A stretch of 64,000 bases of DNA from a plasmid: the sequence record LC546831.1; one strand, given 5' to 3'. The position numbers and the translations under genes are program-made. Below the pieces are notes generated by a model. That model was given only the letters and a program-made list of their open reading frames with translations, made no database searches and was not told the origin of the DNA. Positions 26,159 to 42,226 of this stretch are shown here, piece by piece; positions within the stretch are counted from its first letter, which is position 1, and each line of letters starts with the position of its first letter.

Positions 26159-26772
26159 TATGCACCAAAATGCTACATGTCTCTTTTTAGAGACATTGCA
26201 GATATTAACGAACGCTTTATGATGACGCGAACAACCTTACTTTGAGGCCTTCGTATGAATCATTACCCCGCTGAATATGCAGAAAATATCAATGCCCTGA
26301 AAAACGGGCAGGGCGTTGTTCGAATCGAATCATGGATGCCCGACGAGGTTATTGGGAAACTCATCCGCCGAAAACTGGAACAGGCGGAGGGCGCCGATAT
26401 TACGGTGACGTATACGGTGATCACGGATGAAATGCAGCAGGCGGCCCACAATTTCTGACCACTCTCCTCTGAATAAGGCCGTCGCTGCGCTCCGCTCTTT
26501 TCTGATTCCGCCTGGCGGCGGCCACCTCCCGAACACCGTCATATCCCTATAGCGGGCCTGCAGCCCGATGACATCTTGCCATACCCCGGCCTTGGCGGGG
26601 CGACGGCATGCCGTCTTCAAGCGGCTTTCGCGGCATATCCTTGCCGCGCGCGGCGGCGGTATTCCACGTCCGCTTGACCCGCGGCGGTGCCTGGCCGCGC
26701 TGACATCGGGCCGCAGGGAACGGGTGCCGCACCGGCACCCTCCTGCCGTCCCTTGTCAGACGAGGAACGCTT

Positions 26773-27417
26773 ATGTCCCGCTATGTGTTGGGTGACTCCG
26801 TACAAGTCATGTCTTCTTTCCCTGCCGGCAGTATCGACTTTATTCTGACCGATCCTCCATACCTGGTTGGTTTTACCGATCGCTCCGGGCGCTCGATCGC
26901 CAACGATACGAACCCTGACTGGGTGCTGCCGGCGAGCCGGGAAATGTTTCGGGTGCTCAAACCCAATAGCCTGATGGTGAGCTTCTATGGTTGGAACCGC
27001 ATCGATGCCTTTGTCGGCGCCTGGAAGGCCGCTGGCTTCCGTATCGTTGGCCACCTGGTGTTTACCAAGCAATATGCCTCGAAATCCGCGTTTGTCGGCT
27101 ATCAACACGAGAGCGCTTATATCCTGGCGAAAGGTAGGCCGGCACTGCCGGCACAACCTCTCGCTGATGTGCAGAGTTGGCAATATACCGGCAACCGCCA
27201 CCACCCGACCGAGAAACCCGTTTCCAGCCTGCGACCGCTGATCGAGTCCTTTACCCAGCCTGGCGCCATTGTTCTCGATCCGTTCGCCGGCTCCGGTTCG
27301 ACCTGCGTCGCCGCTGCCTTGTCCGGGCGCCGCTATATTGGCATCGAGCTGTTACCTGACTACCACGCTACGGGCTGTCGTCGCCTGGCTGCGCTGCGCG
27401 GCCGGCGCGCGGCATAA
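26773..27417 (+). CDS. Orphan DNA N6-adenine/N4-cytosine methyltransferase (beta-class, motif order IV then I)
   Basis: DPPY motif near the N-terminus and LDPFAGSGST motif I near the C-terminus; no adjacent restriction gene. Confidence 0.85.
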   Translation: MSRYVLGDSVQVMSSFPAGSIDFILTDPPYLVGFTDRSGRSIANDTNPDWVLPASREMFRVLKPNSLMVSFYGWNRIDAFVGAWKAAGFRIVGHLVFTKQYASKSAFVGYQHESAYILAKGRPALPAQPLADVQSWQYTGNRHHPTEKPVSSLRPLIESFTQPGAIVLDPFAGSGSTCVAAALSGRRYIGIELLPDYHATGCRRLAALRGRRAA

Positions 27418-27431
27418 GGGGAGGGATACCG

Positions 27432-27653
27432 ATGAACTATCAGGGCCATGAGAAATTACGCGCCGACGTGGCGGCGCTGTCAAACGACATGTGGGAGCTG
27501 CATTTGCGATTGAGGGAACTGGTCAGCACGCATTTCTGGAACAGCGATGTATTGGCCGATCGTCTGGCCGGCCACATTCTGCGTGATGCGCACGATCGCT
27601 TCCTTGAGGTCTGCAAAGCTGTCAACGAACTGGATCACCATTTCAGGGAATAG
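27432..27653 (+). CDS. Hypothetical protein (73 aa)
   Basis: ORF 15 bp after the methylase. Confidence 0.35.
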   Translation: MNYQGHEKLRADVAALSNDMWELHLRLRELVSTHFWNSDVLADRLAGHILRDAHDRFLEVCKAVNELDHHFRE

Positions 27654-28074
27654 TGGAAAGCAATACCGGGCGGGCAAGGGAGCCTGCCCGGATCACCAGG
27701 CGGTATCACGGTCGGCCGCCGCAGCGTATCGAACGCCGCCCGACCGTGATACCGCCACGCGGCAATTGCCGGCGTCGCCGGCGCCGCAAAGGGCGCAGGC
27801 TGGGCCTGCCTACACCTCTCTAAATCCACTTCCTCTGCCGCTGCTGCGTAGTGACGGCCTGTGCCGTCCCCAAACGCTAGTCCGGCTCGGTTGTGTTCAA
27901 GCGCCGCGGTGCTCGCCGTCGGCACCCGTTCGCACCCGTTACGGGCATTCAGCCGCGCAACGGGCTTGCGCTGCGGCTTTGACGGCGCCCTTGACCACTG
28001 CCCTCAAGGCCGGCCTTTCGAATGGGTACGGCACCGGCCGGTGTCGCAAACCCTGAAACTGTGGAGGTAGTCCC

Positions 28075-28500
28075 ATGCAACATGCTCATTCCGTCAACCT
28101 GCAGGTGTGTGAAGCCGATCGTCTGTCATTCCTGCCGTACCTGTTCGACGGCGATTTCCTGCGCGCTGAAATGCAAATTTACGCCACCGCCGATCGCTAC
28201 TTGTCGGGTTACAACGGTGGGTTCTGGCATTTCATCCGCCTGCCGAATGGCGGCGGGTATATGGCGCCGGATATTGATCAGGTGACGTTGAGCAATGCCG
28301 ATAACTGGTTCGAAAAAACCATCAGCGGCGATGCCGCCGGCATTATCTTGACGTCGCTGGTCATTAACCGCCGCTGCTGGTTCCATCACGACCGCGGCAA
28401 TGCCGGCATGGTGCAAATGTATATCCAGCGGGAAGACCAGTTGAAAACCTACATCGATACGCACCCGGAACGGGCTGATATCTGGCGCGCCCTGGACTGA
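28075..28500 (+). CDS. ArdB/KlcA-family antirestriction protein (141 aa)
   Basis: GGFWHFIRLPNGGGYMAPD matches the KlcA/ArdB core GG.W..Y.L.NGG.FMAP. Confidence 0.7.
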   Translation: MQHAHSVNLQVCEADRLSFLPYLFDGDFLRAEMQIYATADRYLSGYNGGFWHFIRLPNGGGYMAPDIDQVTLSNADNWFEKTISGDAAGIILTSLVINRRCWFHHDRGNAGMVQMYIQREDQLKTYIDTHPERADIWRALD

Positions 28501-29139
28501 CTGAAGGCGGCGGGTCTGTTTGCCCCGCCTTGAACAACAACACAGAAACCCGAGGTTGCCCATGAAACTGGATGAAGAAACCCAAAAACGTCTGCGTCGA
28601 TACCAGGCGATCATCAATGAAGACCGTCTGCAATATGGATTATCCCCGCTGACATTACCGCAAGTGGTCGCCGCCGTTTTTGAATATCTGGCAGATCAGC
28701 CGTGCATCTTCTTGCGCGGGGTGTTTATTCGACAGTAATGCTGGACTTGCCGTGTAGCCTTACATCAGTGGGGCTACCTGACGCCGCGGGAAAAACCCTG
28801 TCACCTGCGGTGACTGGCAGAAGAGAGCGGCGGCGATGCCGCCGCCTCCAGCTGCCAACAATGACTGCATACCCGTGCTGCAGCAGTGAGGCATCTACCG
28901 AGGTAAGAAAGATTGATGAAGGGTATCCACTATGAAAAGGAACACGTCTTCCGGTTATAAAAGGAATAACTGCTTGTTTATAAGAACAGTGTTTGGAAAG
29001 TAGTGGGTGGCCACCCTTCTATTGCCATAACACATCACATTATCGGGATAGTTGGACAAAGGGGGGAGAGGGGAAAAAAACGAGGGCTTGGGGCAATGGC
29101 CGGTCGAATGACCGTCCAGCAGACCTACTCAACCAAGAC

Positions 29140-29420
29140 GCCCGTATGCGGGCGTCAGGTTTCGCCGAACCCGCACGCGGTTTCGGCCTGTCGGTTAGGG
29201 TCTCCAAGCCAACGGCAACACCCGCGCTTGCTGCCGGCGTCGCCGGCGCCGCTTTCACTGCTCGTCGTTCGGACGACGAGCGCTAAGGTCGCCCCAGCGT
29301 TCGCTGCCGCGCCCGCTGTGTCGGGTTGATCCGTGTTCAACCTTCCAGAGTGCTTTAGCCGCAGTAAGTCTTCCCGCCGCAACTGATAACAGCACAACGC
29401 CTCGCTTAAACACCAAGGGG
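29140..29420. repeat. Degenerate copy (R0) of the Frpo/ssi-like leading-region repeat, upstream of the MAQQNV gene and the ParB-like operon
   Basis: Segments GGTTTCGCCGAACCC..GGGTCTCCAAGCC..GCTGCCGGCGTCGCCGGCGCCGCTTTCACTG..CTAAGG.CGCCCC align with copies R1-R3. Confidence 0.5.
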
Positions 29421-29573
29421 TGTATGAACTCCGCCAAAAACTTTTTCCTCCCTTCGGTCAAAAAAACTTTTTGTCTCCGCCCCTTGGTGCCGCTCTTCGC
29501 CGTGCTGAATCAGTTTATTGCGACGGCGAATACTCACAGCGGCATCAGTTATCACCCCACGGAGGATTTCAAC

Positions 29574-29867
29574 ATGGCTCAACAAAACGTCAAAGGCGCG
29601 ACATCGAAGCCTACAGCAGCATCAGCACTTAAAAACGGCGGTCGTTCTGACCTGCAGGTGTATGAGCTGTTTCTCGCTGTGCAGCGCGCCTGCGGTGGCC
29701 GTTCAACCGGCACGAGTGAGCCGCCGTCCGTACCGGCTGATGCCGAGTATCTGGTCATCGATCAGGGGGAGTTTGACTCTCTGGCCGTTTGGCTGGTCGA
29801 GGGGGTTCCGGTCGCCGCCAGCGATGAAATGAACCTGACGCACTGGGTGATCAGCGCAGGGCAGTAA
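29574..29867 (+). CDS. Hypothetical protein (97 aa), N-terminus MAQQNVKGATSK related to the MNTQNV leader family
   Basis: GGAGGA RBS; follows repeat R0. Confidence 0.4.
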   Translation: MAQQNVKGATSKPTAASALKNGGRSDLQVYELFLAVQRACGGRSTGTSEPPSVPADAEYLVIDQGEFDSLAVWLVEGVPVAASDEMNLTHWVISAGQ

Positions 29868-29952
29868 AAAGCAGGGTTGCCCCTGCTCCTAACCGCCGGT
29901 CTGGACGCCAATCTGACCGGTTTGACAGTAATAACTATTGGAGAGAAATCAC

Positions 29953-32031
29953 ATGTCTGACATCGATACTAAAGCACCTGCAAAACCAAAATCAACCGCC
30001 AAGAAAAGCCCGGCCAAGGCTGCATCAGCCAAAACCGCAGCGGCGAAGTTTGTTGAAGCTGCGCTGGACAAGGCTGAGCGTAAAAATCTCATGCTCAAAG
30101 AGATCACCTTTACTGATCAGAATGCGCGTATTACCCCTCGCACTCAGGACGAGATCGAGGAGATGGCAACCAGTATCGAGGCCACAGGCCTGTTGCAGAA
30201 CCTCGTCGTACACCGCATGGCGGATGGTCGATACGGTGCGGCTGCCGGTGAGACCCGCCGCCTTGGTATGGATTTGTTGATGGTGCAAGGGCGTTCAGCT
30301 GCTGGCGTACCGGTAACGCCGGAGTTTATCGTCCCTGTTTTAGTCGTCGATGAGCAGGACGCCTATGCGATTTCTGTTGCGGAGAACGTGCGCCGCACCA
30401 ATCTGCAACCTGCCGATCAGCTCGAAAATATGCGTAAGCTGGCTGAGAACGGAACCCCGGCCGAACAGATCGCTGCCATCCTCGGCTTCAGCACCCTGCA
30501 TGTTAAAAAATGCCTTAAGTTGACAACCGTAGCCCCTGCGCTGCTGGAGCTGCTGAAAACGAATCAAATCAATTTTGACCAGCTGGCGGCGCTGGGTGCG
30601 ACGGATGATCATCTGCGCCAGATTCAGGCATGGGATAAAGGTAAATATGACGACCACTTCCGCACACCAAAGGCGTTACGAAAAATAGTGCTGGCCGACG
30701 AGGTTTCGGCCGCAGACAGCCAGTTGGTTAACTTTGTTGGGATTGATGCCTATCAAGCAGCAGGCGGTGAGATCCGCGAGGAGATGTTCGTTGACGATGT
30801 CATTCTAACCGACCCATTGAAGCTGGAAACGCTGGCGATCGCCAAGCTGCAAGCGGTGGCGGATGATGTGGCGAAAAATGAAGGGTGGGCATGGGCTGTT
30901 GGCCGTACTCGTGAGGCGCAACGTTATACCGACGATGAGAAGACATTCGTAGTCCCTTGGGTAACCACGAGGCTGACCAGCGAGCAGCAGGCAGAAATGG
31001 ATCAGCTGCTCGCTGAGCAAGAATTGCTGGATGACATGTTTGATACTGCTGAACTCGATGCAGACGATGAATGGGAACATGCGCCACGCGTTGAGCAGAT
31101 TGAGACGCGTATCAACGAAATAAACGCAGCTGCAGAACTCAACAACTGGCCGTCAGAAGTTCGTGCGACGGCAGGCATAATCGCTTATCTGAAAGATGGC
31201 CAGATCCAAATCCAACGTGGCTTGATGAAAGTGGAGGACATCAAGCAACAAGAGAAAGCCAACCGCGAAGAAATCAAGAAGAACACCCCACCGTCAGAAA
31301 AGGGGCTGTCCCAAGTCTTGGTGAGCAGTTTATCCGCCGAACGCACTTTAGCCGTGTCAGCGGCGCTGGCGCAGAACACCAACGTCGCGATTGCACTCCA
31401 TACGTTCACGCTGGCGCGGCGGGTGTTCGACGCGGGATATTTCTATGTGTTGCACACCTCTGTAGAAAGCATGCGCAGCGGCTGCTTATCCCAGTCAGAA
31501 GAGGCTGGTAGCGCGAGTGGCATCGCCAACCTGAAACTGAACGAGATGCATGAGAGCTGGCTGAACCAATTCCCGGATAATTGGAGCGAAAGTTTTGAGT
31601 GGCTGCTGGCGTGGCCACAGGGTGACGTTCTCGGGTTATTGGCATACTGCGTTTCCCACGGCCTCGATGGCCGAGACAGTTATCTCAAGGATAAGCGGGT
31701 TGGCACCAAGCTGGATTCGGTAGAAAAAGCCCTCGATTTCCAGATCGGGGAATGGTGGAAACCGACTGCCGCGAACTTCTTCTCACGGATCGGCAAAGAC
31801 CAAATCGTGGACGCCCTCAATAGCGCCGGTGAAATCGGGAAGGCAAAAGATGCCGAGGGTATGAAACGTAAAGAAGCCGCCGAATTCGCCGCTGCGGTGT
31901 TGAGCGAAACAGGTTGGTTGCCGAGCTGCATGGCACCGCAGCCGCAGGCCGAATCGGAAAGCCGGGCTGATGCCACTGCCAGTGCCACGAACGCCAACGA
32001 TACTGACGCTGACGACAGCGCTGCCGCCTAA
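29953..32031 (+). CDS. Large ParB-like nuclease-domain protein of plasmid leading regions (692 aa)
   Basis: N-terminal ParB/Srx-like domain (ITFTDQNARITPRTQDEIEEMATSIEATGLLQNLVV); acidic C-terminal tail; position upstream of psiB as in F-like leading regions. Confidence 0.75.
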   Translation: MSDIDTKAPAKPKSTAKKSPAKAASAKTAAAKFVEAALDKAERKNLMLKEITFTDQNARITPRTQDEIEEMATSIEATGLLQNLVVHRMADGRYGAAAGETRRLGMDLLMVQGRSAAGVPVTPEFIVPVLVVDEQDAYAISVAENVRRTNLQPADQLENMRKLAENGTPAEQIAAILGFSTLHVKKCLKLTTVAPALLELLKTNQINFDQLAALGATDDHLRQIQAWDKGKYDDHFRTPKALRKIVLADEVSAADSQLVNFVGIDAYQAAGGEIREEMFVDDVILTDPLKLETLAIAKLQAVADDVAKNEGWAWAVGRTREAQRYTDDEKTFVVPWVTTRLTSEQQAEMDQLLAEQELLDDMFDTAELDADDEWEHAPRVEQIETRINEINAAAELNNWPSEVRATAGIIAYLKDGQIQIQRGLMKVEDIKQQEKANREEIKKNTPPSEKGLSQVLVSSLSAERTLAVSAALAQNTNVAIALHTFTLARRVFDAGYFYVLHTSVESMRSGCLSQSEEAGSASGIANLKLNEMHESWLNQFPDNWSESFEWLLAWPQGDVLGLLAYCVSHGLDGRDSYLKDKRVGTKLDSVEKALDFQIGEWWKPTAANFFSRIGKDQIVDALNSAGEIGKAKDAEGMKRKEAAEFAAAVLSETGWLPSCMAPQPQAESESRADATASATNANDTDADDSAAA

Positions 32032-32072
32032 CTGACAAGGAGCTGCCGCCCTCGGGCGGCAGAATAAGCATC

Positions 32073-32537
32073 ATGAAAAACCAAAAATTGAGCCTTTCGC
32101 AGTTAGCCGTGATGAGTGCCTTTGAGCTGGAACAGTATCGTGATCGGGGCAGTGAGGCGCGGCGGCAGCTGAACAATATTGTGCTTGGCCAGATTGAGCT
32201 GCCGGATGGGTGGAGCGCCGTTGCGGAGGAGGCAAGCGAGTTTTGCGGGCAGGTGCCTGTTGTTTGCCGGATCAGTCCACGGGGGGATGACAATCTGGCC
32301 ATATTCCTGTGCAGTGCCGGGAATGAAGTGCCGGAATGGTCAGCTTTTCTCCCATTCCAGGAAACAACAAATGAGGCAGACCAGGGCAATCGCGTCGCCT
32401 GGTTACACACTGCGGAGAATTTTGACCCGGATACGGTCAACAAGGTGTTGGCGACTGTCGGCGATTACTATCGGCACGGGTTTAACCAGCCAGCACAGCT
32501 GGCCACCGCGCTGCGGATGGGAGGGCTGTGCGTATGA
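32073..32537 (+). CDS. psiB: PsiB, plasmid SOS inhibition protein B
   Basis: Similarity to F PsiB (..GSEF.G..PV..R..P......LA..LCS.G..). Confidence 0.8.
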   Translation: MKNQKLSLSQLAVMSAFELEQYRDRGSEARRQLNNIVLGQIELPDGWSAVAEEASEFCGQVPVVCRISPRGDDNLAIFLCSAGNEVPEWSAFLPFQETTNEADQGNRVAWLHTAENFDPDTVNKVLATVGDYYRHGFNQPAQLATALRMGGLCV

Positions 32538-33271
32538 TCCCGAACAGTCACGCTCTGGTATCGATCAATGAATATCAGCATGCCGCCGTCCATGCCGTAG
32601 CATTGGTCGAAAGTAAAAAAAAGAGGGGAAAGCGGCTCGCTGAATTTCCGTATGCCAAAGCCTTTTTCAAGGTGTTGAACAACGGGCGGGGGCAGATTCT
32701 ATCAACCGACATTCGCCTCATTTCATCCAACTATTTTCCTGATGAGCGGGGCGGCGCATCCATTGCGCAGTATGTTGCGGCACTGGACACGTTGATCGAA
32801 AGTGGTGGCCAATACAACCCGCTTCCTCTGTCTGGGGATGTCGCTGCCAAGCTGTTTCCGGCCTACGGTGCTCTTTGCCGCGAACGGCGTGAACGTCAGT
32901 GGGATATGAAATCCGAGCGTAAAGAACGCCGGCGCTCACGGGAAGAACAGCAAAAGCGCCGGCGATACCAAAACCGACTTGCGCAAGCTGACGTCGAGCT
33001 GGCGTTTGTAACGCCGAGTACAGTAGGGGCATGGTATACGCGCTGGAGTAAACAGGACATTTACGAAGACGATCTGGTCGAGAGCGTGCTGGTATGGATT
33101 GAACAGTTCCCGTGCATGGCAGAAAGCGGGCTTCAGCGCCACAAAAGTGACGCTTTGTGGAGAGTCATTGAGCGGTTGACTCAGGTCGAAACTAACTTTA
33201 CCGAGACTGAACGTGTTTTTAATTCTCTGATCATTCCAAACAAGTTACGGGCATTTGATTGCGATGCCTAA
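32528..33271 (+). CDS. psiA: PsiA
   Basis: Overlaps psiB end; EFPYAKAFF versus F PsiA EYPYAGAFF. Confidence 0.75.
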   Translation: MRMIPNSHALVSINEYQHAAVHAVALVESKKKRGKRLAEFPYAKAFFKVLNNGRGQILSTDIRLISSNYFPDERGGASIAQYVAALDTLIESGGQYNPLPLSGDVAAKLFPAYGALCRERRERQWDMKSERKERRRSREEQQKRRRYQNRLAQADVELAFVTPSTVGAWYTRWSKQDIYEDDLVESVLVWIEQFPCMAESGLQRHKSDALWRVIERLTQVETNFTETERVFNSLIIPNKLRAFDCDA

Positions 33272-33329
33272 ATAAAGGTAATGTAGTGTATATCGGGTGT
33301 TAATATAATAAATTATTTGGGGGCGTAAT

Positions 33330-33713
33330 ATGTTAGGGTTTATTGTAGCTGTTTTGATAATGTCATGCGCTATTGCTTTTGTGACAAAACAGGCAAAAAA
33401 TGGTGCATTTACTAGATTTAACAAGCGATTAAGTGCTATATGCAATGTTGGCTTGTTGTATTCTGGACTAATATTTATTTTGGTGTCTGTTGTATTTAAC
33501 GCATTTTATGGAGCGGAAAATACTCCTGTGGAAACTCTGAATTCGCCTTTCTCAAACGTTGTTAGCGGAATGGGTGAGATGGCCTCTCAGTTGTCCAATG
33601 TATTGATGTATTTGGGAGTTTTTTGTTCGGTTGCTTCCTTTCCATTGAAACTATTGATTAATAGGGATGGAAGTAGCGGTGATGATGATAAACAAGATGA
33701 GGGGGCATTATGA
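33330..33713 (+). CDS. Hypothetical membrane protein, low-GC
   Basis: AT-rich ORF, three TM. Confidence 0.35.
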   Translation: MLGFIVAVLIMSCAIAFVTKQAKNGAFTRFNKRLSAICNVGLLYSGLIFILVSVVFNAFYGAENTPVETLNSPFSNVVSGMGEMASQLSNVLMYLGVFCSVASFPLKLLINRDGSSGDDDKQDEGAL

Positions 33714-33928
33714 ATAATTTAGAAATTGACCGGAGTGTCACGGGGGATCTGGTCACTGAGTTAAAGAAATATGGCAGTAAAACAGTGACTGTTATGCAAT
33801 CCTACGATGAACTAGCTGACCGTCACTACAAGCCTCGCCCCGCGTTCCGTGACTGGGTGCGTCGGTTGAAAGAAGGTGAGCGATTGCCCAGGGGCCGGTA
33901 TTTTAACGGGCCAAAAAAGAAAGCATAG
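33710..33928 (+). CDS. Hypothetical protein (72 aa), followed by a terminator hairpin GGCGCCTGGCGGCGCC-T5
   Basis: ATGA-coupled ORF; intrinsic terminator at 33937-33960. Confidence 0.3.
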   Translation: MNNLEIDRSVTGDLVTELKKYGSKTVTVMQSYDELADRHYKPRPAFRDWVRRLKEGERLPRGRYFNGPKKKA

Positions 33929-34151
33929 TAATAACAAGGCGCCTGGCGGCGCCTTTTTCTTGTCTGCTTATTGACCTGGCCCCTTTCCGCTCGTTAGGAA
34001 GCTTATCCACTCGGTGCGATGTGCATTCATTAGTGTCGGGAATTCGCTGCGTGTTTAAGCTGCGGGGTAGCATCGGGTCTTTTCCTGGTTGGATTCGGCG
34101 TTTTCCTCGTTTTGAATACTGTGCCAACAGCTGCAAAAAACAATACGCCAG

Positions 34152-34660
34152 CTGGCGCTTCCTTCGGTGGCAGGCCGCAAGCGTCCAGCCATCAAGCCCT
34201 ACTCGACTAATCGCCCGCCGGCGGGCGCCAAGTCTCGCCGAACTCCTTCGGGTTTCGGGCCGGCCGGCTAGGGTCTGAAAGCCAGGGTCAACAACCTGCG
34301 CTTGCAGCCGGCTATGCCGGCGCCACTTTCACTGTTCGCCGCTGTGCCGGCGATCGCTAAGGGCGCCCCGGCGTTTCGCCGGGTCGGGTATGTTCCTGCT
34401 CATCTCACCGTTGGTTATCTCTCATCGGCCTCACGCGGCCGCTTTTGTAGCACCGTCGCCCGGTTGCCCGCAAGGGAGGATAAATCGCCGCAAGCGGCGC
34501 CCTTGCTGTCCCCCGTTCGCCGTCGCTACTTCCGCTTTTTCGCCGCGCAAGGTTCCGACGAGAGATAGATAACCCACCCAGCAAGGAGAACAGCATGAAC
34601 ACACAGAACGTCAACATCAACGTCAACACCGCCACGAAGGAACACTCTGGGAGATATGAA
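34152..34660. repeat. Frpo/ssi-like leading-region repeat, copy R1 (about 510 bp) including the RBS and first 20 codons of the downstream gene
   Basis: More than 80% identity to 38216-38725 and 41494-42000. Confidence 0.8.
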
Positions 34661-35041
34661 ACGGCGGGATTGTGCGAACCAGAGGCCCCGGAGCCTTGGG
34701 AAAAGCCCGGCGTGCAATATCCTGCTGCCGTGCGCGCGTTGGAAATGGAGTTTATTTACTTAGACGACCTGAATGAACTGTATGCGCAAAGCAGCACGTC
34801 ACCCGACGAGCTGGAGCAGGCTCTCTATGTGATTTTCGGCCGAATGACAGAGCTTGTCCAAAGCTGCGGGGCTGATTATAAGCAGCCTGACAAGCCGAGG
34901 GTTTCATACGAGATGGCCAAATACTGGATCAGGGGGCAACGGGTAGCGCAGCAATGTTTCGGGGAAATCGGTCAGCGCGCCTGGGAGCATGCACGTTACA
35001 GACTGGCGTTCGAGTTGGCGGTGGAGTATTCGTACAACTGA
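34595..35041 (+). CDS. Hypothetical protein (148 aa), MNTQNV-leader family, paralog A
   Basis: N-terminus MNTQNVNINVNTATKEHSGRYE shared with two other genes; C-terminal region DKPRVSYEMAKYW homologous to paralog B. Confidence 0.5.
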   Translation: MNTQNVNINVNTATKEHSGRYETAGLCEPEAPEPWEKPGVQYPAAVRALEMEFIYLDDLNELYAQSSTSPDELEQALYVIFGRMTELVQSCGADYKQPDKPRVSYEMAKYWIRGQRVAQQCFGEIGQRAWEHARYRLAFELAVEYSYN

Positions 35042-35137
35042 CCAGCTTAAAGATATTTTTATCAAAAAGACCTGTTAACAGGTCTTTTGGGTGATATAAT
35101 AAGACCTGTTAAGTGGTCATATTAAGTCGAGGATACT

Positions 35138-35389
35138 ATGCCAAATATCATTCTGAGTGACACAAGTGCGAGCATCAGCGAGCTGAAGAAAAACCCTATG
35201 GAAACCGTTGGCGCCGGTGCCGGTTTTCCAGTGGCCATCCTGAACCGCAATCAGCCTGCATTCTATTGCGTGCCGGCGGCGCTCTATGAGCAAATGCTCG
35301 ATGCCCTCGATGATCAGGATCTGGTGAGATTGGTCAATGAGCGCCGTAGCGAAGCGCTGGTTGATATCGATCTGGATCAGTTCGCATGA
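35138..35389 (+). CDS. stbD: Phd/YefM-family antitoxin (StbD-like)
   Basis: 83 aa, N-terminus and size typical of YefM/Phd; ATGA overlap with the downstream RelE-like gene. Confidence 0.75.
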   Translation: MPNIILSDTSASISELKKNPMETVGAGAGFPVAILNRNQPAFYCVPAALYEQMLDALDDQDLVRLVNERRSEALVDIDLDQFA

Positions 35390-35673
35390 CGTATACGGTC
35401 AAATTTCGTGAATCCGCGCTGAAAGAGTGGGGCAAGCTGGACAAGTCGCTACAGCAGCAGTTCGCTAAAAAGCTGAAAAAATGCTGCGAGAACCCGCATA
35501 TACCCTCGGCAAAACTACGGGGGATGCCGGGGTGTTACAAAATCAAGCTGCGCGCCTCGGGTTTTCGTCTGGTTTATGAGGTGATCGACGATTGCCTGAT
35601 TATCGCGGTGGTTGCCGTTGGCAAACGTGAGCGCGGTGATGTGTACCAGTTGGCCAGCGAACGTCTTAAGTGA
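35386..35673 (+). CDS. stbE: RelE/ParE-family toxin (StbE-like)
   Basis: 95 aa; RelE-like C-terminus FRLVYEVIDDCLIIAVVAVGKRER. Confidence 0.75.
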   Translation: MTYTVKFRESALKEWGKLDKSLQQQFAKKLKKCCENPHIPSAKLRGMPGCYKIKLRASGFRLVYEVIDDCLIIAVVAVGKRERGDVYQLASERLK

Positions 35674-35679
35674 ACAGAT

Positions 35680-36003
35680 GTGCCTAAGCACAAGAGCTAT
35701 TCAAATGAGGTGAGGTTAATAACAATGCTGGTATTGGGATTAGTTGGTTTCTTGGTGTGGATGCTTTCAATTCTTTATATTGGATTTTCAGCAACCATAC
35801 TTTGGTCGTGGTTTATTGTGCCTTTTGGCATAACGCCTATCAATTTGGCGTGGGCTATCGGCCTAGCTTGCCTGTTTGGATTGGGAAGGGGAATTCCCCG
35901 TTCGTCAGAAGATAATGATAAATTATTTTCAGAATTGCTGATGCCGTATATAAGTACAACATTACTTCTTATTATTGGGTATATTTCGCATATTTTTATG
36001 TAA
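35680..36003 (+). CDS. Hypothetical membrane protein (107 aa, 3 TM), low-GC
   Basis: ORF. Confidence 0.3.
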   Translation: MPKHKSYSNEVRLITMLVLGLVGFLVWMLSILYIGFSATILWSWFIVPFGITPINLAWAIGLACLFGLGRGIPRSSEDNDKLFSELLMPYISTTLLLIIGYISHIFM

Positions 36004-36008
36004 ACAAT

Positions 36009-36497
36009 ATGATAGGTGAAAAAATGAAGACGATCAGACCGGAAATTTTTGAGAAGCTTCGAGACAAGTCAACCGCGGCGAAATACCTGCAGCCCGGCAA
36101 ATGTGGTTTTCATACTGCGACAGGTTCCCGCCGATTGTTCATCGGGGAGACAACTCGCCAATACTGGACGCGCGAAAAGTATGAAAGCCCCGAGGTCGGG
36201 AACACGGAAGCCTATGTAAACTACAGACTCGACCAGGCATCAGGTGATCTTGCTCCGGAGGAAAGAGAGGTTCCCGTTTGCCTGAAGGGGGAGGAAGGGG
36301 ATGAGCATACGCCGGTGCTTTGCTATATGACGTTGCCGGTGAAAAAGAAGGGGGTTACTACTGAGGAATTCCTGGCGGAAGTCGAAGACAAGCTGACACT
36401 GACGCTGGCCGTTCAGTATGTCTATGATTGCCTGGAGGCTGAACGGCGAGAGCGCGCTACCGGCGGGTCTGATGAGATTATCATCAATGACTTCTGA
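36009..36497 (+). CDS. Hypothetical protein (162 aa; alternative start 36024)
   Basis: ORF. Confidence 0.35.
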   Translation: MIGEKMKTIRPEIFEKLRDKSTAAKYLQPGKCGFHTATGSRRLFIGETTRQYWTREKYESPEVGNTEAYVNYRLDQASGDLAPEEREVPVCLKGEEGDEHTPVLCYMTLPVKKKGVTTEEFLAEVEDKLTLTLAVQYVYDCLEAERRERATGGSDEIIINDF

Positions 36498-36511
36498 TAG
36501 GGAGGTATAGA

Positions 36512-36865
36512 GTGGGGAAAAATGTCTTTACTATTAAACATGAATACTCAAATATCGACTTCTCCGCACTGACTGATTCAGAGTTGACGGAGTTGATAAA
36601 ACGCGCAATGACTGAATTTCAAAACAGACTGAATAATCCTGTATTTGAAAATAGAAGAGAAGAAAGGAAGGTTGTATATTCACCTTCGGCGCGACAATTG
36701 ACATTTATAGAAAATTGTCTTTCAGGTGGATATGTTCACGCATCAATGAAAGACGAGTATAAAGCATTAGCTAAAGAGTTTTCGGAATGGTTCACGAGTA
36801 AGGGATACCCTACAGATTTACGGGGTTCTGATTTTGAGCGCTGGAAACGCTATTACCAAAAGTGA
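36512..36865 (+). CDS. Hypothetical protein (117 aa), low-GC
   Basis: ORF. Confidence 0.35.
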   Translation: MGKNVFTIKHEYSNIDFSALTDSELTELIKRAMTEFQNRLNNPVFENRREERKVVYSPSARQLTFIENCLSGGYVHASMKDEYKALAKEFSEWFTSKGYPTDLRGSDFERWKRYYQK

Positions 36866-37076
36866 GTATGTAATCTTTACACTGCCGAACAGGCAGCTTA
36901 GAAACTCTGGGTTAATAACGAAAATATACTGCCGTACAGGCAGATGCATCAATATTCAGCGAGTATATTAACAACAAAAAAAAGCACCTGATGGGTGTTT
37001 TTTTGGTTTTCATGTGCACCTGTTAGGTGTATTATTGCATTGTTGTTAAGCAGATGACAATTTTCAATAAAAGAGG

Positions 37077-37325
37077 GTGAAGAATATGTCTAAATATCAA
37101 CTCCGTAAGCTAAATGTAAACTCTTTAGCGGTTTCCTACGATACCAAAAAAGAGTTCGATAATTTTTCTACACTGCGTGACGCAATTAATGCTGATAAAA
37201 GTCTGTTCTTTGGGAAAGGCTTCCATGTGTTGGACACAGATAACAATATCATCTTCGATGATAAGGCTGTGGAGCATTTAGGCGCTCAATTTACGCTGAA
37301 GCAGGCAATTTTTAACTATAGCTGA
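37077..37325 (+). CDS. Hypothetical protein (82 aa)
   Basis: ORF. Confidence 0.35.
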   Translation: MKNMSKYQLRKLNVNSLAVSYDTKKEFDNFSTLRDAINADKSLFFGKGFHVLDTDNNIIFDDKAVEHLGAQFTLKQAIFNYS

Positions 37326-37334
37326 GGTGAGAGT

Positions 37335-37865
37335 ATGAACGCGGACGAGTTTAAAAGAATTGTCCTGCAGAATGGGCCGGTATTGCAAGCGTGTAAAAAG
37401 CCTAAAACCCTTGTAGAAGCGATGACCTCCAATTTTGCATTGGCGAATAGTGACATTAATTGGAAATTTCATAGCGGATTGGCTTTTGCCTGGCTTATGG
37501 GGAGCACGGTTGCCGCTTCTAGACTGAATCGTCTAAACAAGAATCGTCGATCGACAGTGCCCTTTTGTGAGGCGTGGGGCAGGGTGGCCAAACGGGATAA
37601 CGGAAAGATCCATATTAATGAACGACGATTCACGCGCTGGTTATCGGTCGCGACGAACGACCTGGAAAAGTTTTATCAGGAAACCCTGAGAGCAATCGAT
37701 GCGATGGATACCTATTCCTCCCCGTTTTCGGTCGCTTCGTTGTATGAGCTCGCTCAGGATCTGGATAACGACTTCTATTACCAAAATAGCGAGCTTGAGC
37801 AAAAAGCCGTTGAACGCTTTCGGGTGATCGCTGCAGAGCAATTCCTCAATGGCCAGGGTGCCTGA
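37335..37865 (+). CDS. Hypothetical protein (176 aa)
   Basis: ORF. Confidence 0.4.
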   Translation: MNADEFKRIVLQNGPVLQACKKPKTLVEAMTSNFALANSDINWKFHSGLAFAWLMGSTVAASRLNRLNKNRRSTVPFCEAWGRVAKRDNGKIHINERRFTRWLSVATNDLEKFYQETLRAIDAMDTYSSPFSVASLYELAQDLDNDFYYQNSELEQKAVERFRVIAAEQFLNGQGA

Positions 37866-37876
37866 ATGAGCTGTAT

Positions 37877-37924
37877 GTTCCCCACGTCAGTGGGGTGAGT
37901 GTTACGTTCCCCGCGACAGTGGGG
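37877..37924. promoter_or_regulatory. Two 19-bp hairpin-forming repeats GTTCCCCACGTCAGTGGGG and GTTCCCCGCGACAGTGGGG, 14 bp upstream of the XRE regulator gene; candidate operators
   Basis: Direct reading; each repeat is internally palindromic (CCCCAC..GTGGGG). Confidence 0.4.
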
Positions 37925-37937
37925 AGGAAATCGTATT

Positions 37938-38165
37938 ATGCATAATGAAATATTGTCTGAAGCCCAGGCTGCTCTGGGCCTGAACAAGCAGGATATGGCG
38001 CGCGCCCTGGGCGTTCATTACAACACCTACGGAAAGTGGTCGCGCGGTGAGCAAAATCCGCCGGCGGCCGTTTATACCGCAATTAACATGCTTCTTTTTC
38101 TTAAAGAAAAACAGCTTGTTGCGGAGTGGCTTTACAGGAATGAATCTTTCAAACAGATTCGGTGA
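37938..38165 (+). CDS. XRE-family HTH transcriptional regulator (75 aa)
   Basis: HTH LNKQDMARALGVHYNTYGKWSRGE. Confidence 0.6.
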   Translation: MHNEILSEAQAALGLNKQDMARALGVHYNTYGKWSRGEQNPPAAVYTAINMLLFLKEKQLVAEWLYRNESFKQIR

Positions 38166-38215
38166 TCTGCCGATCGCCGGTGCCTATCAAAATACCTTTC
38201 TTAAACTTCCTATGA

Positions 38216-38725
38216 GCTTCCTCCGGTGGCCGGCCGCAAGCGTCCAGCCATCGAGCCCTACTCGACTAGCCGCCCGCGCGCGGGCGCCAAGTCTCACCGA
38301 ACCCGCGTAGCGGTTTCGGGCCTGCCGGCTAAGGTCTGAAAGCCAACATCAACAACACCAAGGTCAACAGCATGCGCTTGCTGCCGGCGATGCCGGCGCC
38401 GCTTTAACTGTTCGTCGCCTGGCGACGAACGTTGAGGACGCCCCGGCGTTTCGCCGTGTCGGGTGTGTTCCTGCTCATCTCACCGGTGGTTATCTCTCAT
38501 CGGCCCTTACGCGGCCGCTTTTGTAGCACCGTCGCCCGCGTGCCCGCAAGGGTGAAATGCACGCCGCAAGCGGCGCCCTTGCGTTCCCCCGTTCGCCGTC
38601 GCTACGTCAGCTTTTCGCCGCGCAAGGTTCCGACGAGAGATAAATCAACCACCGAAGAGGGATACCAGCATGAACACACAAAACGTCAACGTCAAAACCG
38701 CCACGAAGGAACGCTCTGAAAGATA
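38216..38725. repeat. Frpo/ssi-like leading-region repeat, copy R2
   Basis: Aligned with R1 and R3. Confidence 0.8.
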
Positions 38726-39092
38726 TGGGTGGACGGAAGCCTATGGTTGGGGCTTGTCGCCTGCTGAACGCATTTCTGAGCAACAGGGCTATCTGAAAGA
38801 GCTGCGCCATTTTAACGATCAGTGGAAACCGGAAAGAGCGCAGCGGCTGATGGAACTGCTGATGACCATCGCCGATAACGTGCTGGACTCGGTGACGAAC
38901 TGGAAAGACGTGGGCGCTTTTGGTGATAAACCCCGCGTTCCTTACATGATCGTTCGTTGCTGGCTGGACGCGATGGCGTTGGCGCCAGAGATGTGCGGCG
39001 AAATGGGCAGCAACGCCGTGGCGTATGTGCTCGAAAAATTGGAGGGGAAATTTGAGTTTGAATGCGCGATGACCCGGATGGATCACCCATAA
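38670..39092 (+). CDS. Hypothetical protein (140 aa), MNTQNV-leader family, paralog B
   Basis: N-terminus MNTQNVNVKTATKERSERYG; DKPRVPYMIVRCW region homologous to paralog A. Confidence 0.5.
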   Translation: MNTQNVNVKTATKERSERYGWTEAYGWGLSPAERISEQQGYLKELRHFNDQWKPERAQRLMELLMTIADNVLDSVTNWKDVGAFGDKPRVPYMIVRCWLDAMALAPEMCGEMGSNAVAYVLEKLEGKFEFECAMTRMDHP

Positions 39093-39151
39093 ATTTTACC
39101 GGCCGGGCGGCGGTGCTGCTGCCCGGCCTATCACGAGAAGGAGATAAGACT

Positions 39152-39568
39152 ATGAAACAGAGCATCAACACCGCCGCCAAAGGATCGCCTGATGATTGGG
39201 ATGTAAAAGCCTGCCTGTTCGTTACTCAAGAGATCGGCCGCTTTTCTGTCAAATTCTCGGCGCCTTGCATCGGGGGCACTGTGAACCTGAGTTGCAGCCA
39301 CATCACCAACGCCTGCAATCCATTTGATGCAGTAATGCGATTTGCGCACGAAACCAGCGCGAAGGGCTGCACGGTGTACGCCGTGGAACAGGTCGAGCCT
39401 GTGCGCCCTGTTTGCCTGAGCACAGCCGGGTATCGCTTTATGCAAAAAGGCTTCATCTGGCTGTGTCTTGATACCGGCGTGATCGTCGAAGTGTCAGAGG
39501 ATGGCCGGATGCGGCGCGGGGATGATGGCTGCACGTTGCCGTACTACGGCACGTTAACCCGCATTTAA
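39152..39568 (+). CDS. Hypothetical Cys-rich protein (138 aa)
   Basis: GAAGGAG RBS. Confidence 0.4.
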   Translation: MKQSINTAAKGSPDDWDVKACLFVTQEIGRFSVKFSAPCIGGTVNLSCSHITNACNPFDAVMRFAHETSAKGCTVYAVEQVEPVRPVCLSTAGYRFMQKGFIWLCLDTGVIVEVSEDGRMRRGDDGCTLPYYGTLTRI

Positions 39569-39603
39569 CCGATGGAAAACCACCCTAACAGAGGAGAAAA
39601 ACG

Positions 39604-39951
39604 ATGTATCAGACCGAAATCAGCACTGAAAACCGCATGTTGTGGGATGCCAGCACCGAGGCCTCTTATTGGCAGCTAAGGGAGCAAGAAGCACGCACAG
39701 AAATCGTGGAGATCACCCTGACGGAGTTTATGGACGCGATCGCGGTGTTGTACCCGAAAGACTGGGAGGGAGACGCACATAGCGAAACTTTCAAGCTGGC
39801 CGAAATGTACTGCGGGGACGTTACCTACATTTTCGCCAAAGTCGGCGATCGCTATTTTAAGTTCCGTGACGTGGTGACGTTATCGCATAGCGCCATTTTG
39901 GCGCGGATCAATAAGGAGGTGCTAAACCGGGAAACGAAGACTCAGAAATGA
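39604..39951 (+). CDS. Hypothetical protein (115 aa)
   Basis: ORF. Confidence 0.4.
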   Translation: MYQTEISTENRMLWDASTEASYWQLREQEARTEIVEITLTEFMDAIAVLYPKDWEGDAHSETFKLAEMYCGDVTYIFAKVGDRYFKFRDVVTLSHSAILARINKEVLNRETKTQK

Positions 39952-40040
39952 AAAAAGCAGCGTTTCCGCTGCTCTCTCATGCCGGTTTACCCCTGAGAAA
40001 GCTAGACCGGCGTTCTATCAAACTACATGGAGTATCGACC

Positions 40041-40304
40041 ATGAAATCGAAAGACCCGAGCATCATGACAGTAACTGACGAGTATGTAAAGCGCCTGCAG
40101 GCAGAGTGCGATCATGTGAAGCGCCAGCGGCGGATCGCGCGCGGCGATATAGCCGCCGCCGACGTCGATCCGGATCTGCGGTCGTTCGGGCGTCATATCG
40201 CCGGGTGTGTCCGCAAGGGCAAATCAGTCCGGGTGCCGTCGATGCGGGGCAGTGAGTGGGGGCACGTTCTGCGTGCGCTGGAGTTAACGCGGGCAATGGC
40301 CTGA
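40041..40304 (+). CDS. Hypothetical protein (87 aa; longer ORF from 39948 possible)
   Basis: ORF. Confidence 0.3.
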   Translation: MKSKDPSIMTVTDEYVKRLQAECDHVKRQRRIARGDIAAADVDPDLRSFGRHIAGCVRKGKSVRVPSMRGSEWGHVLRALELTRAMA

Positions 40305-40356
40305 TAACGCGAGCCGCCCCGAAACCGGGGCGGCTATTCACTGACCCGGAGGTTAA

Positions 40357-41157
40357 TTGATGTCACAACTCTCTTTTGATGCCCTGTTTTCTGTGCCCGT
40401 CGATGCGGTGCGCCCGGCGGAAAAGAACGTCAGGGCTGATGCTTTAGAACAGCCAAAACCCGCCGACCCTGTACCAGGACGGAAACGGACAATCACCGGC
40501 GATGATCCGCGGAAGGCGTTTTTGAGTACGTTTCGTGAAACGGCGCGTAATCACCATCGGTACGAGGTTTTCAGCGATTTCGTGAAGTTGGCGGCCTGTG
40601 CTTTGGAGAATGCCTGTTTAAAGTCGCCGGATATCGAGGCGGAGTATATGGCCACAATACAACGCTATGAGAAGGCAGACGCGCAGCGCATGGCGCAGCT
40701 GCTTTCGTGGCTGGTCATCGGGCTGGAGCAGAATATGGGGGATTTTCTCGGCTCACTGTTTATGGAGCTGGAGCTGGGCAGCGGCCACATCGGCCAGTTT
40801 TTCACGCCGTTCCATCTTTCTGAGCTGATGGCGGGACTGGTGGCCGGTGATCGGCTGGCGGCGCTGGAAAATGAGCCGTATATCACGCTGTCCGAACCGA
40901 CCAGCGGCGCGGGCGGGATGGTGATCGCGTTTGCCAAAGTGATGCTGGCGCGCGGCTATAACCCGCAAACGCAGCTGCGCGCCGACTGCGTGGACATCGA
41001 TCCGGTGGCGGCGCGGATGTGTTACATCCAGCTGTCGCTGTTGGGTATCCCGGCGCGCGTGGTGATCGGCAACAGCCTGACACTGAAGTATCAGCGCGAG
41101 ATGTATACACCGTTTTGGTATCGCGTGACGTCCACGCGCTGGCCGATGTATCGCTAA
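40357..41157 (+). CDS. HsdM-like / N6-adenine methyltransferase-like protein with an apparently degenerate catalytic motif (266 aa)
   Basis: Motif-I-like LSEPTSGAGGMVIAFAKVM (AdoMet-binding G-loop), but the expected (D/N)PP(F/Y) position reads VVIGNSLTLK. Confidence 0.45.
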   Translation: MMSQLSFDALFSVPVDAVRPAEKNVRADALEQPKPADPVPGRKRTITGDDPRKAFLSTFRETARNHHRYEVFSDFVKLAACALENACLKSPDIEAEYMATIQRYEKADAQRMAQLLSWLVIGLEQNMGDFLGSLFMELELGSGHIGQFFTPFHLSELMAGLVAGDRLAALENEPYITLSEPTSGAGGMVIAFAKVMLARGYNPQTQLRADCVDIDPVAARMCYIQLSLLGIPARVVIGNSLTLKYQREMYTPFWYRVTSTRWPMYR

Positions 41158-41493
41158 CAACAGAGGCGGGCAGGGGGATCCTGCCCGATAACGCATGGCA
41201 GAAGAAAATGAAACGCCGGCGTTACTGGGCGAATTGACCGACCGGGGCGGGAACCGCTAGGCACTGTGCAACTCGACGCCTGAAGGATGCGGTGCACTAT
41301 TACGCGTGAGCCTGGCAGCAAAGAGGGTGCCGGTACAAAAGGCAGAATAAGAACAGAGTACGGCGCCTGCGGCGCCGTTCTTATTCCTCATTCCCGTTCT
41401 GAGTGTGCCCACTTGTTATGTCGGCATGTACTTGTTTGTCGTCCTACCACTCTTATTTCCCCGCACCAGGTGTAAAAAACCATTCCACAAGAA

Positions 41494-42000
41494 CTGGCGC
41501 TTCCTTCGGTGGCCGGTCGCAAGCGCCCAGCCATCAAGCCCTACTCGACTAGCCGCCCGCGCGCGGTCGCCAAGTCTCGCCGAACCCCTTCGGGTTTCGG
41601 GCCAGCCGGCTAGGGTCTGAAAGCCAACATCAAGGTCAACCCCCTACGCTTGCAGCCGGCGATGCCGGCGCCGCTTTAACTGTTCGTTGCCTGGCAACGA
41701 ACGCTAAGGACGCCCCGGCTTGTCGCCGTGTCGGGTGCGTACCTGCTCATATTGCCGGTGGCTATCTCTCATCGGCCCTTACGCGGCCGCTTTTGTAGCA
41801 CCGTCGCCCGGTTGCCCGCAAGGGTGAAATGCACGCCGCAAGCGGCGCCCTTGCTGTCCCCCGTTCGCCGTCGCTACGTCAGCTTTTTGCCGCGCAAGGT
41901 TCCGACGAGAGATAGATAACCCACCCAGGAAGGAGAACAGCATGAACACACGAAACGTCAAAGTCCAAACCGCCACGAAGGAACACTCTGAAAGATACGG
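41494..42000. repeat. Frpo/ssi-like leading-region repeat, copy R3
   Basis: Aligned with R1 and R2. Confidence 0.8.
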
Positions 42001-42226
42001 GGAAAAGATCATCGCTGATTTGGATTCGTTGCTGCAGAAAACAAGCCGGGCGCTGTTTAAGTTTCAGAAAAATGCGAACAGAAGTGCACTCGGCATTCAA
42101 ACAGCTGCGCTGAGCCAGGAACTTGAAATATTGGTGAAGGGAGTACCGGCCATCCCGGATATTCAGGAAAGAGTGAATAAGGTGGCCGAACTGCTGCACA
42201 TTATGGAAGATTTTTCGGCCCAATAA
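41942..42226 (+). CDS. Hypothetical protein (94 aa), MNTQNV-leader family, paralog C, unrelated C-terminal body
   Basis: N-terminus MNTRNVKVQTATKEHSERYG. Confidence 0.45.
   Translation: MNTRNVKVQTATKEHSERYGEKIIADLDSLLQKTSRALFKFQKNANRSALGIQTAALSQELEILVKGVPAIPDIQERVNKVAELLHIMEDFSAQ

Follow-up and report, generated by a model that had tools for sequence, protein, structure and literature searches.

Candidate single-strand promoter cassettes repeated in the leading region of an F-like plasmid, with a start codon in the base of a transferred-strand hairpin and a common leader on the genes behind them

A 64,000-nucleotide stretch of plasmid DNA (sequence record LC546831.1; hereafter the window) carries in its leading region four copies of a cassette of about 500 bp which, judged by sequence homology, are of the Frpo/ssi lineage and belong to the same family as the published low-certainty `Frpo*' candidates 5–7. 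In each copy the strand transferred in conjugation forms a long hairpin, which is backed by covariation, and the cassette includes the ribosome-binding site (RBS), the start codon and the first codons of the open reading frame (ORF) behind it. The four copies probably work as leading-region single-strand promoters in the manner set out below. Single-strand promoters decide which plasmid genes act during the first minutes in a new host, a period of contest with restriction, CRISPR and the SOS response.

The window as a whole resembles F-like (MOBF, MPF_F) plasmids of Serratia, the closest being S. marcescens CP027301 with 96% identity, and the genes of the leading region follow the order found in F (methylase, ardB, ParB-like, psiB, psiA, small genes, DUF932, SLT transglycosylase and traM). 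A nic site of the F type is placed between the SLT gene and traM, with the SLT/traM layout as in F:

44374–44392, minus strand: F-like nic site of the origin of transfer (oriT), 17 of 19 bases identical to F GCGTGGGGTGTGGTGCTTT, with 0 chance matches expected

The location of this site identifies the minus strand as the one transferred, as had been supposed in a first-pass annotation that placed the repeats in a plasmid leading region. That strand enters the recipient toward falling coordinates and provides the template for every gene from 26 to 43.5 kb, all of them on the plus strand.

The borders of the copies were set from an alignment of 62 non-redundant relatives, in which the conserved stretch runs from about −455 to about +58 relative to the ATG and ends abruptly at +58. 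The four copies, referred to below as the 41k, 38k, 34k and 29k copies, are as follows:

41487–41999, minus strand: cassette copy nearest to oriT (about 2.4 kb from nic), from repeat families and alignment; 147 bits with the family core hidden Markov model
38215–38727, minus strand: cassette copy 2, from repeat families and alignment; 158 bits with the same model
34140–34658, minus strand: cassette copy 3, with a two-codon insertion in the leader, from repeat families and alignment; 134 bits with the same model
29120–29632, minus strand: diverged copy keeping an A+T-rich tip, from alignments; at the place of Frpo2 in F, upstream of a ParB-like/psiB/psiA unit

The three good copies, with start codons at 34595, 38670 and 41942, align in register over approximately 510 bp with pairwise identities of 84.6–89.1%, while the 29k copy, with its ATG at 29574, is 65–67% identical to the others and represents a distinct sub-variant. 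The G+C content of the copies is 62% versus 53% for the leading region. The initial description of the three good copies as GC-rich and more than 80% identical is thus borne out, with borders within a few bases of those first given; the degenerate fourth copy, then placed at 29140–29420, also exists, but its true span is longer. A search of 24000–46000 against Rfam (E ≤ 1) returned no match for the repeats, the sole match over the gathering score being a CRISPR repeat elsewhere, described below.

Kinship with Frpo-type elements, also proposed at first pass, was recovered from several directions. With F Frpo2 as the query, nhmmer matched the 29k copy (29606–29326, E = 1.6e-6), and with Frpo*5 of Salmonella enterica it matched all four copies over the full 397 nucleotides (E = 5e-21, 1e-20, 2e-20 and 2e-15, the last for the 29k copy). 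In the reverse direction, a family profile built without the start codon and leader matched F Frpo1 with 29 bits (reporting threshold 1e-5). In a multiple alignment, the copies and F have the motif GGGTGAAATGCAC in common and a 3' boundary at the homologous place. Thousands of homologues and candidates have been catalogued by Samuel et al. (Nature 2024; PMC11541004), deletion of Frpo1 or Frpo2 in F abolishes early expression in transconjugants (PMC9849209), and start sites of classes 1–3 have been mapped in vivo (PMC12672017).

The minus strand of each copy folds into a long imperfect hairpin, with the following predicted energies:

34k copy: minus strand −119.2 kcal/mol, z = −4.3; plus strand −102.9 kcal/mol, z = −2.2
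38k copy: minus strand −145.3 kcal/mol, z = −7.9; plus strand −120.5 kcal/mol, z = −4.4
41k copy: minus strand −127.9 kcal/mol, z = −5.0
29k copy: minus strand −120.1 kcal/mol, z = −7.6

RNAalifold gave the same hairpin across 52 relatives, and pairing statistics were obtained for 32 long-range pairs in these 52 sequences against 500 shuffles. Paired cells amounted to 95.1% compared with 86.2% after shuffling, a value reached in 0 of the 500 shuffles; cells altered on both sides numbered 151 versus 49 in the shuffles, and sliding the partners by one to three columns reduced pairing to at most 55%. Wobble combinations were also unequal, with 162 G-T against 26 A-C, a count that is not fully independent since the structure was predicted on the minus strand, which favours G-T. 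The consensus fold comprises 44 pairs on the minus strand versus 12 on the plus strand, and the minus strand was the more stable in all 52 relatives (mean −73.7 versus −57.9 kcal/mol). The long hairpin therefore belongs to the transferred strand (z = −4.3 to −7.9 for the minus strand of the window copies), in agreement with the long-range self-complementarity noticed at the outset. The distal 200 bp of the cassette contain, in addition, several short GC hairpins.

The base of the hairpin is a 13 bp `start stem', one side of which is the complement of ORF positions −3 to +10, that is, of the start codon and codons 2–4, and the other side a distal box about 200 nucleotides upstream with the plus-strand sequence GTGTGTTC(A/C)TGCT:

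38667–38679 (also 34592–34604 and 41939–41951), minus strand: proximal half of the start stem; alignment columns 73–85 pair with 351–363 in 52 sequences
38463–38476 (also 34388–34401 and 41735–41748), minus strand: distal half of the start stem, plus-strand sequence GTGTGTTCCTGCTC
38562–38575 (also 34486–34499 and 41834–41847), minus strand: 14-nucleotide GC mini-hairpin at the tip, CGCCGCAAGCGGCG, in place of an A+T-rich tip

The start stem is almost invariant, and its covarying column pairs, 83–353 and 85–351, correspond to ORF positions −1 and −3, with G-C, T-A and C-G at one and T-A and C-G at the other. At the opposite end of the hairpin, the A+T-rich tip is kept in the 29k copy (29436–29473) as well as in F, ColIb-P9 and Klebsiella relatives, and three interchangeable tip types occur among the relatives, the third of which resembles the centre of class 2 elements as judged by eye. 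This third type is a long GC-rich insert (alignment A4, columns 185–245, for example in L016, L018, L031 and L045 from Pantoea and Erwinia), the likeness, again by eye, being to the class 2 centre GGAAGCCGCAGCGCAAG...GCGAACGGGTGAGGA, and the base of these hairpins keeps the same leader. Such a distribution suggests module exchange between classes of single-strand promoter.

Two further observations concern the cassettes. Within each good copy lies a plus-strand hairpin with CTTTTG behind it (CGGCC..GCGGCCG CTTTTGTAGC; 34426–34441, 38501–38517 and 41773–41789), which looks like a weak terminator and is found in Serratia copies, not in the family consensus. Identical or near-identical leader-bearing cassettes are also present in a Streptomyces morookaense contig (L062) and in metagenome-assembled genomes of Dysgonomonas (L046) and Thiotrichaceae (L041), which are most likely to be contamination or mis-binned plasmid contigs.

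The sequence shared by the copies reaches 19–21 codons into each ORF, close to the 20 or so first estimated, and yields a common leader, MNT(Q/R)NV..TATKE.S.RY. The first genes behind the four copies are:

34595–35041, plus strand: first gene of unit B, an ORF of 148 residues with leader MNTQNVNINVNTATKEHSGRYE and, in the predicted model, a helical-bundle body
38670–39092, plus strand: first gene of unit C, 140 residues with leader MNTQNVNVKTATKERSERYG, the body a distant paralogue of that of the 34595 ORF
41942–42226, plus strand: first gene of unit D, 94 residues with leader MNTRNVKVQTATKEHSERYG, at the position of ygeA in F, upstream of the DUF932 gene
29574–29867, plus strand: first gene behind the diverged copy, 97 residues beginning MAQQNVKGATSK..., with an RBS GGAGG followed by the ATG

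The arrangement of the 29k copy and its first gene is the same in an S. ureilytica locus (L063). The three leader-bearing proteins of the good copies had been called otherwise different, which holds for the 41942 body, unrelated to the other two; those of 34595 and 38670 are distant paralogues (local BLASTP, E = 3e-6). No relevant family was found for the bodies, and none at all for the leader, in Pfam and NCBIfam, and a Foldseek search of the PDB with the confident model gave no match below E = 1. In the AlphaFold2 model of the 34595 protein the predicted local distance difference test score is below 50 for residues 1–27 and about 90 for the body, and the leader is thus predicted to be disordered and separate from the body fold.

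The association of cassette and leader extends well beyond the window. All 84 strong matches of the leader-free profile have an RBS and a leader-type ATG at one position, and ORFs of at least 55 residues lie behind 78 of them. Without their first 21 residues, the encoded proteins fall into 19 BLASTP families, which profile–profile comparison does not merge (51% probability for the best pair); simple tandem gene duplication was accordingly discarded as the whole story, the same leader being found on all 19. A profile of three leader sequences searched against 1.84 billion representatives retrieved 51 cluster representatives, 50 of which match at residue 1, and tblastn located the leader in 866 plasmid records, chiefly from Klebsiella, Enterobacter, Serratia and Citrobacter. 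Among homologues of the 34595 protein the leader is almost constant although the identity of the body drops to 40%. A full-text literature search, with older subscription literature outside its reach, returned no paper mentioning the leader peptide.

Each cassette heads its own transcription unit, the four units starting at the ATGs given above (29574, 34595, 38670 and 41942), and terminator-like hairpins at 33936–33955 and 41360–41378 end preceding units. In 9 of the 15 best-matching plasmids similarity stops at query position 17998, which corresponds to window position 41997 at the end of the 41k leader. Plasmid PWN146p1 is 95.5% identical to the window as far as 38729, the end of the 38k leader, then has 326 bp of unrelated sequence beginning at window position 38730, and is again 92% identical from 39104; it encodes the same leader joined to a different body of 119 residues. 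Such a body swap at the leader end makes the cassette a portable stretch of homology and the leader boundary a recurrent junction. The initial proposal of a modular cassette recruited in front of different early genes is well supported by this exchange in a sister plasmid and by the in-frame occurrence of the leader on at least 19 unrelated families across Enterobacterales.

Promoter elements within the cassette are less clear. The sole σ70-like pair recurring at one alignment position in a weight-matrix scan lies at the hairpin base, where the minus strand of the leader stretch contains a TTGACG that is invariant in the family:

38684–38695, minus strand: two TTGACG boxes arising from leader codons 5–9, the outer box 17 nucleotides from CATGCT, which includes the complement of the start codon

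The arrangement TTGACG-17-CATGCT scores 8.7 bits in the 38k copy, 6.9 in the 34k copy and 5.4 in the 41k copy, and a TTGACG-like box is found 17–18 nucleotides from CAT(G/T)CT in sequences with a two-codon NV insertion, including the three window copies. Were this the promoter, the distal arm would serve as template and the leader side as non-template strand, and transcription would begin immediately downstream of the distal box, the polymerase proceeding up and round the hairpin into the gene. A scan against the σ70 consensus found no site with at least 9 of 12 matches on either strand inside the copies. Two candidate features were rejected. The first is the pair TTGAGA-17-CATACT given by the weight-matrix scan on F ssiD, since its −10 hexamer reads CATCAC in NC_002483 and neither ColIb-P9 nor the window conserves the pair; the second is an A left unpaired within the CAT of the putative −10 box, which occurs in only 8 of the 52 relatives, the three window copies among them, and so is not a feature of the family.

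Several results weigh against a promoter role of the F type. The three good copies gave no BLAST match to F ssiD or ColIb-P9 ssi1–3, nhmmer with F ssiD as a single query was likewise negative, and searching the window with a profile built from eight class 1 sequences gave no match, a failure that is probably due to poor alignment; the nearest published relatives were graded by Samuel et al. as low-certainty candidates (PMC11541004). The A+T-rich (UP-like) tip is absent from the 34k, 38k and 41k copies, a weight-matrix scan did not find canonical −35/−10 boxes in the central stem of these copies, and TTGACG-17-CAT(G/T)CT is properly spaced in just 32 of the 62 relatives, the spacing failing in the other half. 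Moreover, leader codons 5–20 have no conserved pairing partner (at least 85% pairing over at least 5 bp), so the hairpin does not explain their conservation. Since canonical boxes were not found, the argument for promoter activity is one from homology, and both this activity and the position of the start site are inferred. The first-pass annotation had proposed single-strand promoters folding in the transferred strand, with promoter-like stem-loops to be looked for on the minus strand: the stable fold and the homology stand, while canonical −35 and −10 elements were not found in the stem of the three good copies.

Taken together, the four cassettes are probably single-strand promoters that would operate as follows. 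During conjugation the minus strand would enter the recipient first, from nic at 44.38 kb, and, before synthesis of its complement, each cassette would fold into an imperfect hairpin of about 300 nucleotides, with the complement of the ATG and codons 2–4 forming the hairpin base by pairing with the conserved distal box. By homology with F Frpo1/2, host RNA polymerase would start on the folded strand and transcribe the operon behind, until complementary-strand synthesis removed the hairpin and shut the promoter off. Because the cassette holds the RBS, the ATG and the first 19–21 codons, every first gene opens with the same leader, predicted to be disordered, and the shared 500 bp would act as portable homology along which gene bodies could be traded in frame at the leader end. 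It has also been considered that the start codon might be placed in the hairpin as a deliberate gate tying translation to the single-stranded state, combined with a common leader tag, which we regard as rather unlikely. In the RNA, the distal box may occlude the AUG of transcripts begun upstream of it, including read-through from the preceding operon after conversion to double-stranded DNA, while a transcript begun downstream of it, from the single-strand promoter, may be free for translation; through the disordered leader, dozens of early proteins that are otherwise unrelated may share one fate, for instance rapid turnover. If both parts of this proposal were true, anti-defence genes would have in the cassette a plug-in module for expression and timing.

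A functional role for the leader peptide itself, kept by selection as a degradation signal or a translation-enhancing start region, for example, would account for its position at residue 1 in all but one of the 51 cluster representatives retrieved, its near-identity on bodies that have diverged to 40%, its predicted disorder apart from the fold and the in-frame ORFs of at least 55 residues behind 78 of 84 cassettes. Codons 12–20 also have slightly higher entropy at third positions (0.98 versus 0.76 and 0.66), and F YgeA has a diverged version of the leader, MSTRNIHVNTAS, outside the repeat. However, the same DNA segment is conserved and untranslated in F Frpo1/2 and at position 2203 of relative L010, where another triplet stands in place of the ATG and the gene relies on an RBS of its own beyond the segment. 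Within codons 15–19 many substitutions fall at first and second positions and alter the amino acid, with third positions fixed, and codon-position periodicity is weak; codons 1–4 are conserved because they are base-paired in the start stem, and no Pfam or NCBIfam family matches the leader. Its conservation in the absence of translation and the amino-acid-changing substitutions indicate that the leader is maintained mostly by a constraint on the DNA, which for codons 5–20 is what we infer, with the peptide a tolerated by-product; a selected peptide tag is accordingly considered unlikely.

Three other explanations were considered. The cassettes could be mainly single-strand initiation sites, priming the complementary strand or acting as replication roadblocks, with mRNA made from elsewhere, given that Frpo was first isolated as the priming signal ssiD, that Frpo transcripts serve as primers for DNA synthesis in vitro and probably also in vivo (Masai and Arai, 1997, as reviewed in PMC7690428; bioRxiv 10.64898/2026.01.09.698686), that ssp2 is described as a structural roadblock (bioRxiv 10.64898/2026.01.09.698686), and that several short GC hairpins lie in the distal 200 bp. 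Such a function is nevertheless compatible with a promoter, both coexisting in F, and as the main function it is improbable in view of the fixed position and orientation of 84 of 84 cassettes at an ORF start, with RBS and ATG, and of the failure to find a plus-strand promoter inside the copies. That the repeats are ordinary double-strand promoter/operators under a plasmid repressor, the hairpin being incidental, is very improbable: they would then resemble IncN CUP elements, which in R46 are leading-region repeats of about 450 bp that extend 23 nucleotides into ccgAI and ardA (shared MT..TTPS) and are bound by ArdK (PMC6289460), and a helix–turn–helix gene does lie just upstream of copy 2 (37899–38165), but no similarity to R46 CUP (nhmmer E ≤ 10, BLAST E ≤ 0.01) and no plus-strand σ70 match of at least 9/12 was found inside the copies, and the compensatory changes and G-T excess point to selection on the fold of one strand, for which a duplex operator has no need. 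Least probable is a mobile or recombination element, such as a palindromic miniature transposon or an attC-like folded site directing cassette exchange. Its attractions are an almost wholly self-complementary, multi-copy sequence (up to three in 8 kb in Pantoea) with sharp conserved borders at −455 and +58, a body-replacement junction exactly at the boundary and three interchangeable hairpin tips; yet the 84 cassettes are uniform in orientation and reading frame at the ORF start, they are homologous to experimentally validated promoters, homologous recombination across 500 bp of shared sequence suffices for the swaps, and neither target-site duplications nor a cognate recombinase was seen, although no dedicated search was made for either. 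The preferred reading remains that of single-strand promoter cassettes.

Pieces upstream of ardB and of the methylase gene had been listed as further diverged copies, an interpretation that does not hold, as they have just 21 nucleotides in common with the repeat and are separate elements of classes 2 and 3:

27753–27979, minus strand: separate element of class 2 (ssp2/Frpo3) type upstream of ardB; BLAST match to Frpo*1 with E = 8e-27, fold z = −6.9
26615–26780, minus strand: separate element upstream of the methylase gene, at the position of class 3/ssp3; fold z = −3.6

The matches of Frpo*1, Frpo*3 and Frpo'4 in F lie within 6392–6726, upstream of ardB, and for Frpo*1 it is the central part that corresponds to this ardB-upstream region, where ssp2/Frpo3 is located; the direct match of the window piece to F is just 23 nucleotides. 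The Frpo3/ssp2/class 2 element has been described upstream of F ardB (PMC12672017; bioRxiv 10.1101/2025.04.03.647016; bioRxiv 10.64898/2026.01.09.698686). The methylase-upstream piece matches the corresponding region of F by BLAST (69% over 182 nucleotides, E = 1e-14). With the four cassettes, these two elements bring to six the candidate single-strand promoter hairpins, of three kinds, within 18 kb.

Other features of the region were noted in passing. The unit behind the 34k cassette includes a Phd/YefM–RelE toxin–antitoxin pair (35138–35673). A leading-region intergenic gap contains a solitary type I-F-like CRISPR repeat, TTACACTGCCGAACAGGCAGCTTAGAAA (36877–36945, plus strand; Rfam CRISPR-DR4, 37 bits, over the gathering score), followed 21 nucleotides further on by a second, partial repeat core, ACTGCCGTACAGGCAG, and then by a strong terminator-like hairpin at 36978–37004; the repeat is kept in 14 Serratia plasmids and could represent either a degenerate mini-array or an anti-CRISPR of the RNA kind. 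Between traM and traY, the place of traJ in F, a minus-strand block at 45135–46880 and onward (L001 33721–37748) encodes a hybrid sensor kinase/response regulator, an oxidoreductase, a family 9 glycosyltransferase and a helix–turn–helix regulator.

As a result of this analysis, candidates published as `low-certainty' become a well supported family with a covariation-backed transferred-strand fold, occurring in Serratia, Klebsiella, Enterobacter, Pantoea, Erwinia, Yersinia, Salmonella and further genera. Many early genes that are unrelated to one another receive from this family both their translation start and a common leader, their bodies being traded at the leader boundary, and MNT[QH]NV... 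is therefore a handle for finding candidate early or anti-defence genes. The cassette also provides defined mutations for probing the coupling of folded DNA with the starts of transcription and translation.

Among known systems, the closest characterized relatives are Frpo1 and Frpo2 of F (ssiD; ssp1a/ssp1b; class 1), which likewise precede, within the leading region, genes that have the transferred strand as their template, occur in more than one copy and form a long imperfect hairpin on that strand. The motifs GTGCATTTCACCC and GCGGTTTTGACGTT and the 3' boundary are shared, and so is synteny, the 41k copy preceding the gene at the ygeA position and DUF932 as Frpo1 does, and the 29k copy preceding the ParB-like/psiB/psiA unit as does Frpo2. 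In contrast to the window copies, the leader-like segment of F is untranslated, with AGG for ATG and the RBS of the genes themselves 60–75 nucleotides further on; the F elements have an A+T-rich tip, the three good copies the 14-nucleotide GC mini-hairpin; and the base stem, read by eye, pairs GGCAGGTCCCCGC with GCGGGTGCCTGCC in F, without an ATG, and GCATGAACACAC with GTGTGTTC(A/C)TGC here. The leader-like segments of F (13950–14036 and about 8560–8650 in L002) keep an open frame, which behind Frpo1 stops at a TGA overlapping the ATG of ygeA (ATGA) and behind Frpo2 continues for 25 codons, in frame into the ATG of ssb; the YgeA start MSTRNIHVNTAS is a second, diverged leader-like start. The Frpo* 5–7 sequences from a conjugative element of S. 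enterica (Samuel et al., Supplementary Table 2) are full-length nhmmer homologues of the same family, with an A+T-rich tip like that of the 29k copy, and are listed only up to the ATG, so neither leader nor start stem was reported.

More distant parallels place the individual properties of the cassette in context. The ssi1–3 elements of ColIb-P9/pESBL (IncI1 class 1), active as single strands according to PMC12672017 and to Bates et al. (1999) as cited there, are likewise three dispersed repeats in one leading region, each before another early operon, but only the central 110 nucleotides or so are common to them and F, and they have no BLAST match to the window. IncN CUP of pKM101/R46 (Delver and Belogurov, 1997) consists of leading-region repeats of about 450 bp that stand before different early genes and run into the ORFs; in R46, 23189–23644 and 24529–24985 are 96% identical, including the first 23 nucleotides of ccgAI and ardA. 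CUP differs in being known as a double-strand promoter/operator bound by ArdK (PMC6289460), with about seven shared codons and no reported strand-specific hairpin, and the window repeats have no match in R46 22000–28400 (nhmmer E ≤ 10, BLAST E ≤ 0.01).

In the minus-strand origin of the filamentous phages M13 and f1, host σ70 RNA polymerase recognizes folded single-stranded DNA that mimics a promoter; this origin differs from the cassettes in yielding a short primer only, in carrying no protein start and in having no sequence relationship to them. Repeated single-strand promoters within one leading region are thus already established, in F and in ColIb-P9/pESBL, and a repeat that runs into the ORF has a partial precedent in IncN CUP. 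What is new here is a cassette, of the Frpo lineage by sequence, in which the tip is replaced, the start codon is built into the base of the hairpin, and many early genes of unrelated families carry a common leader.

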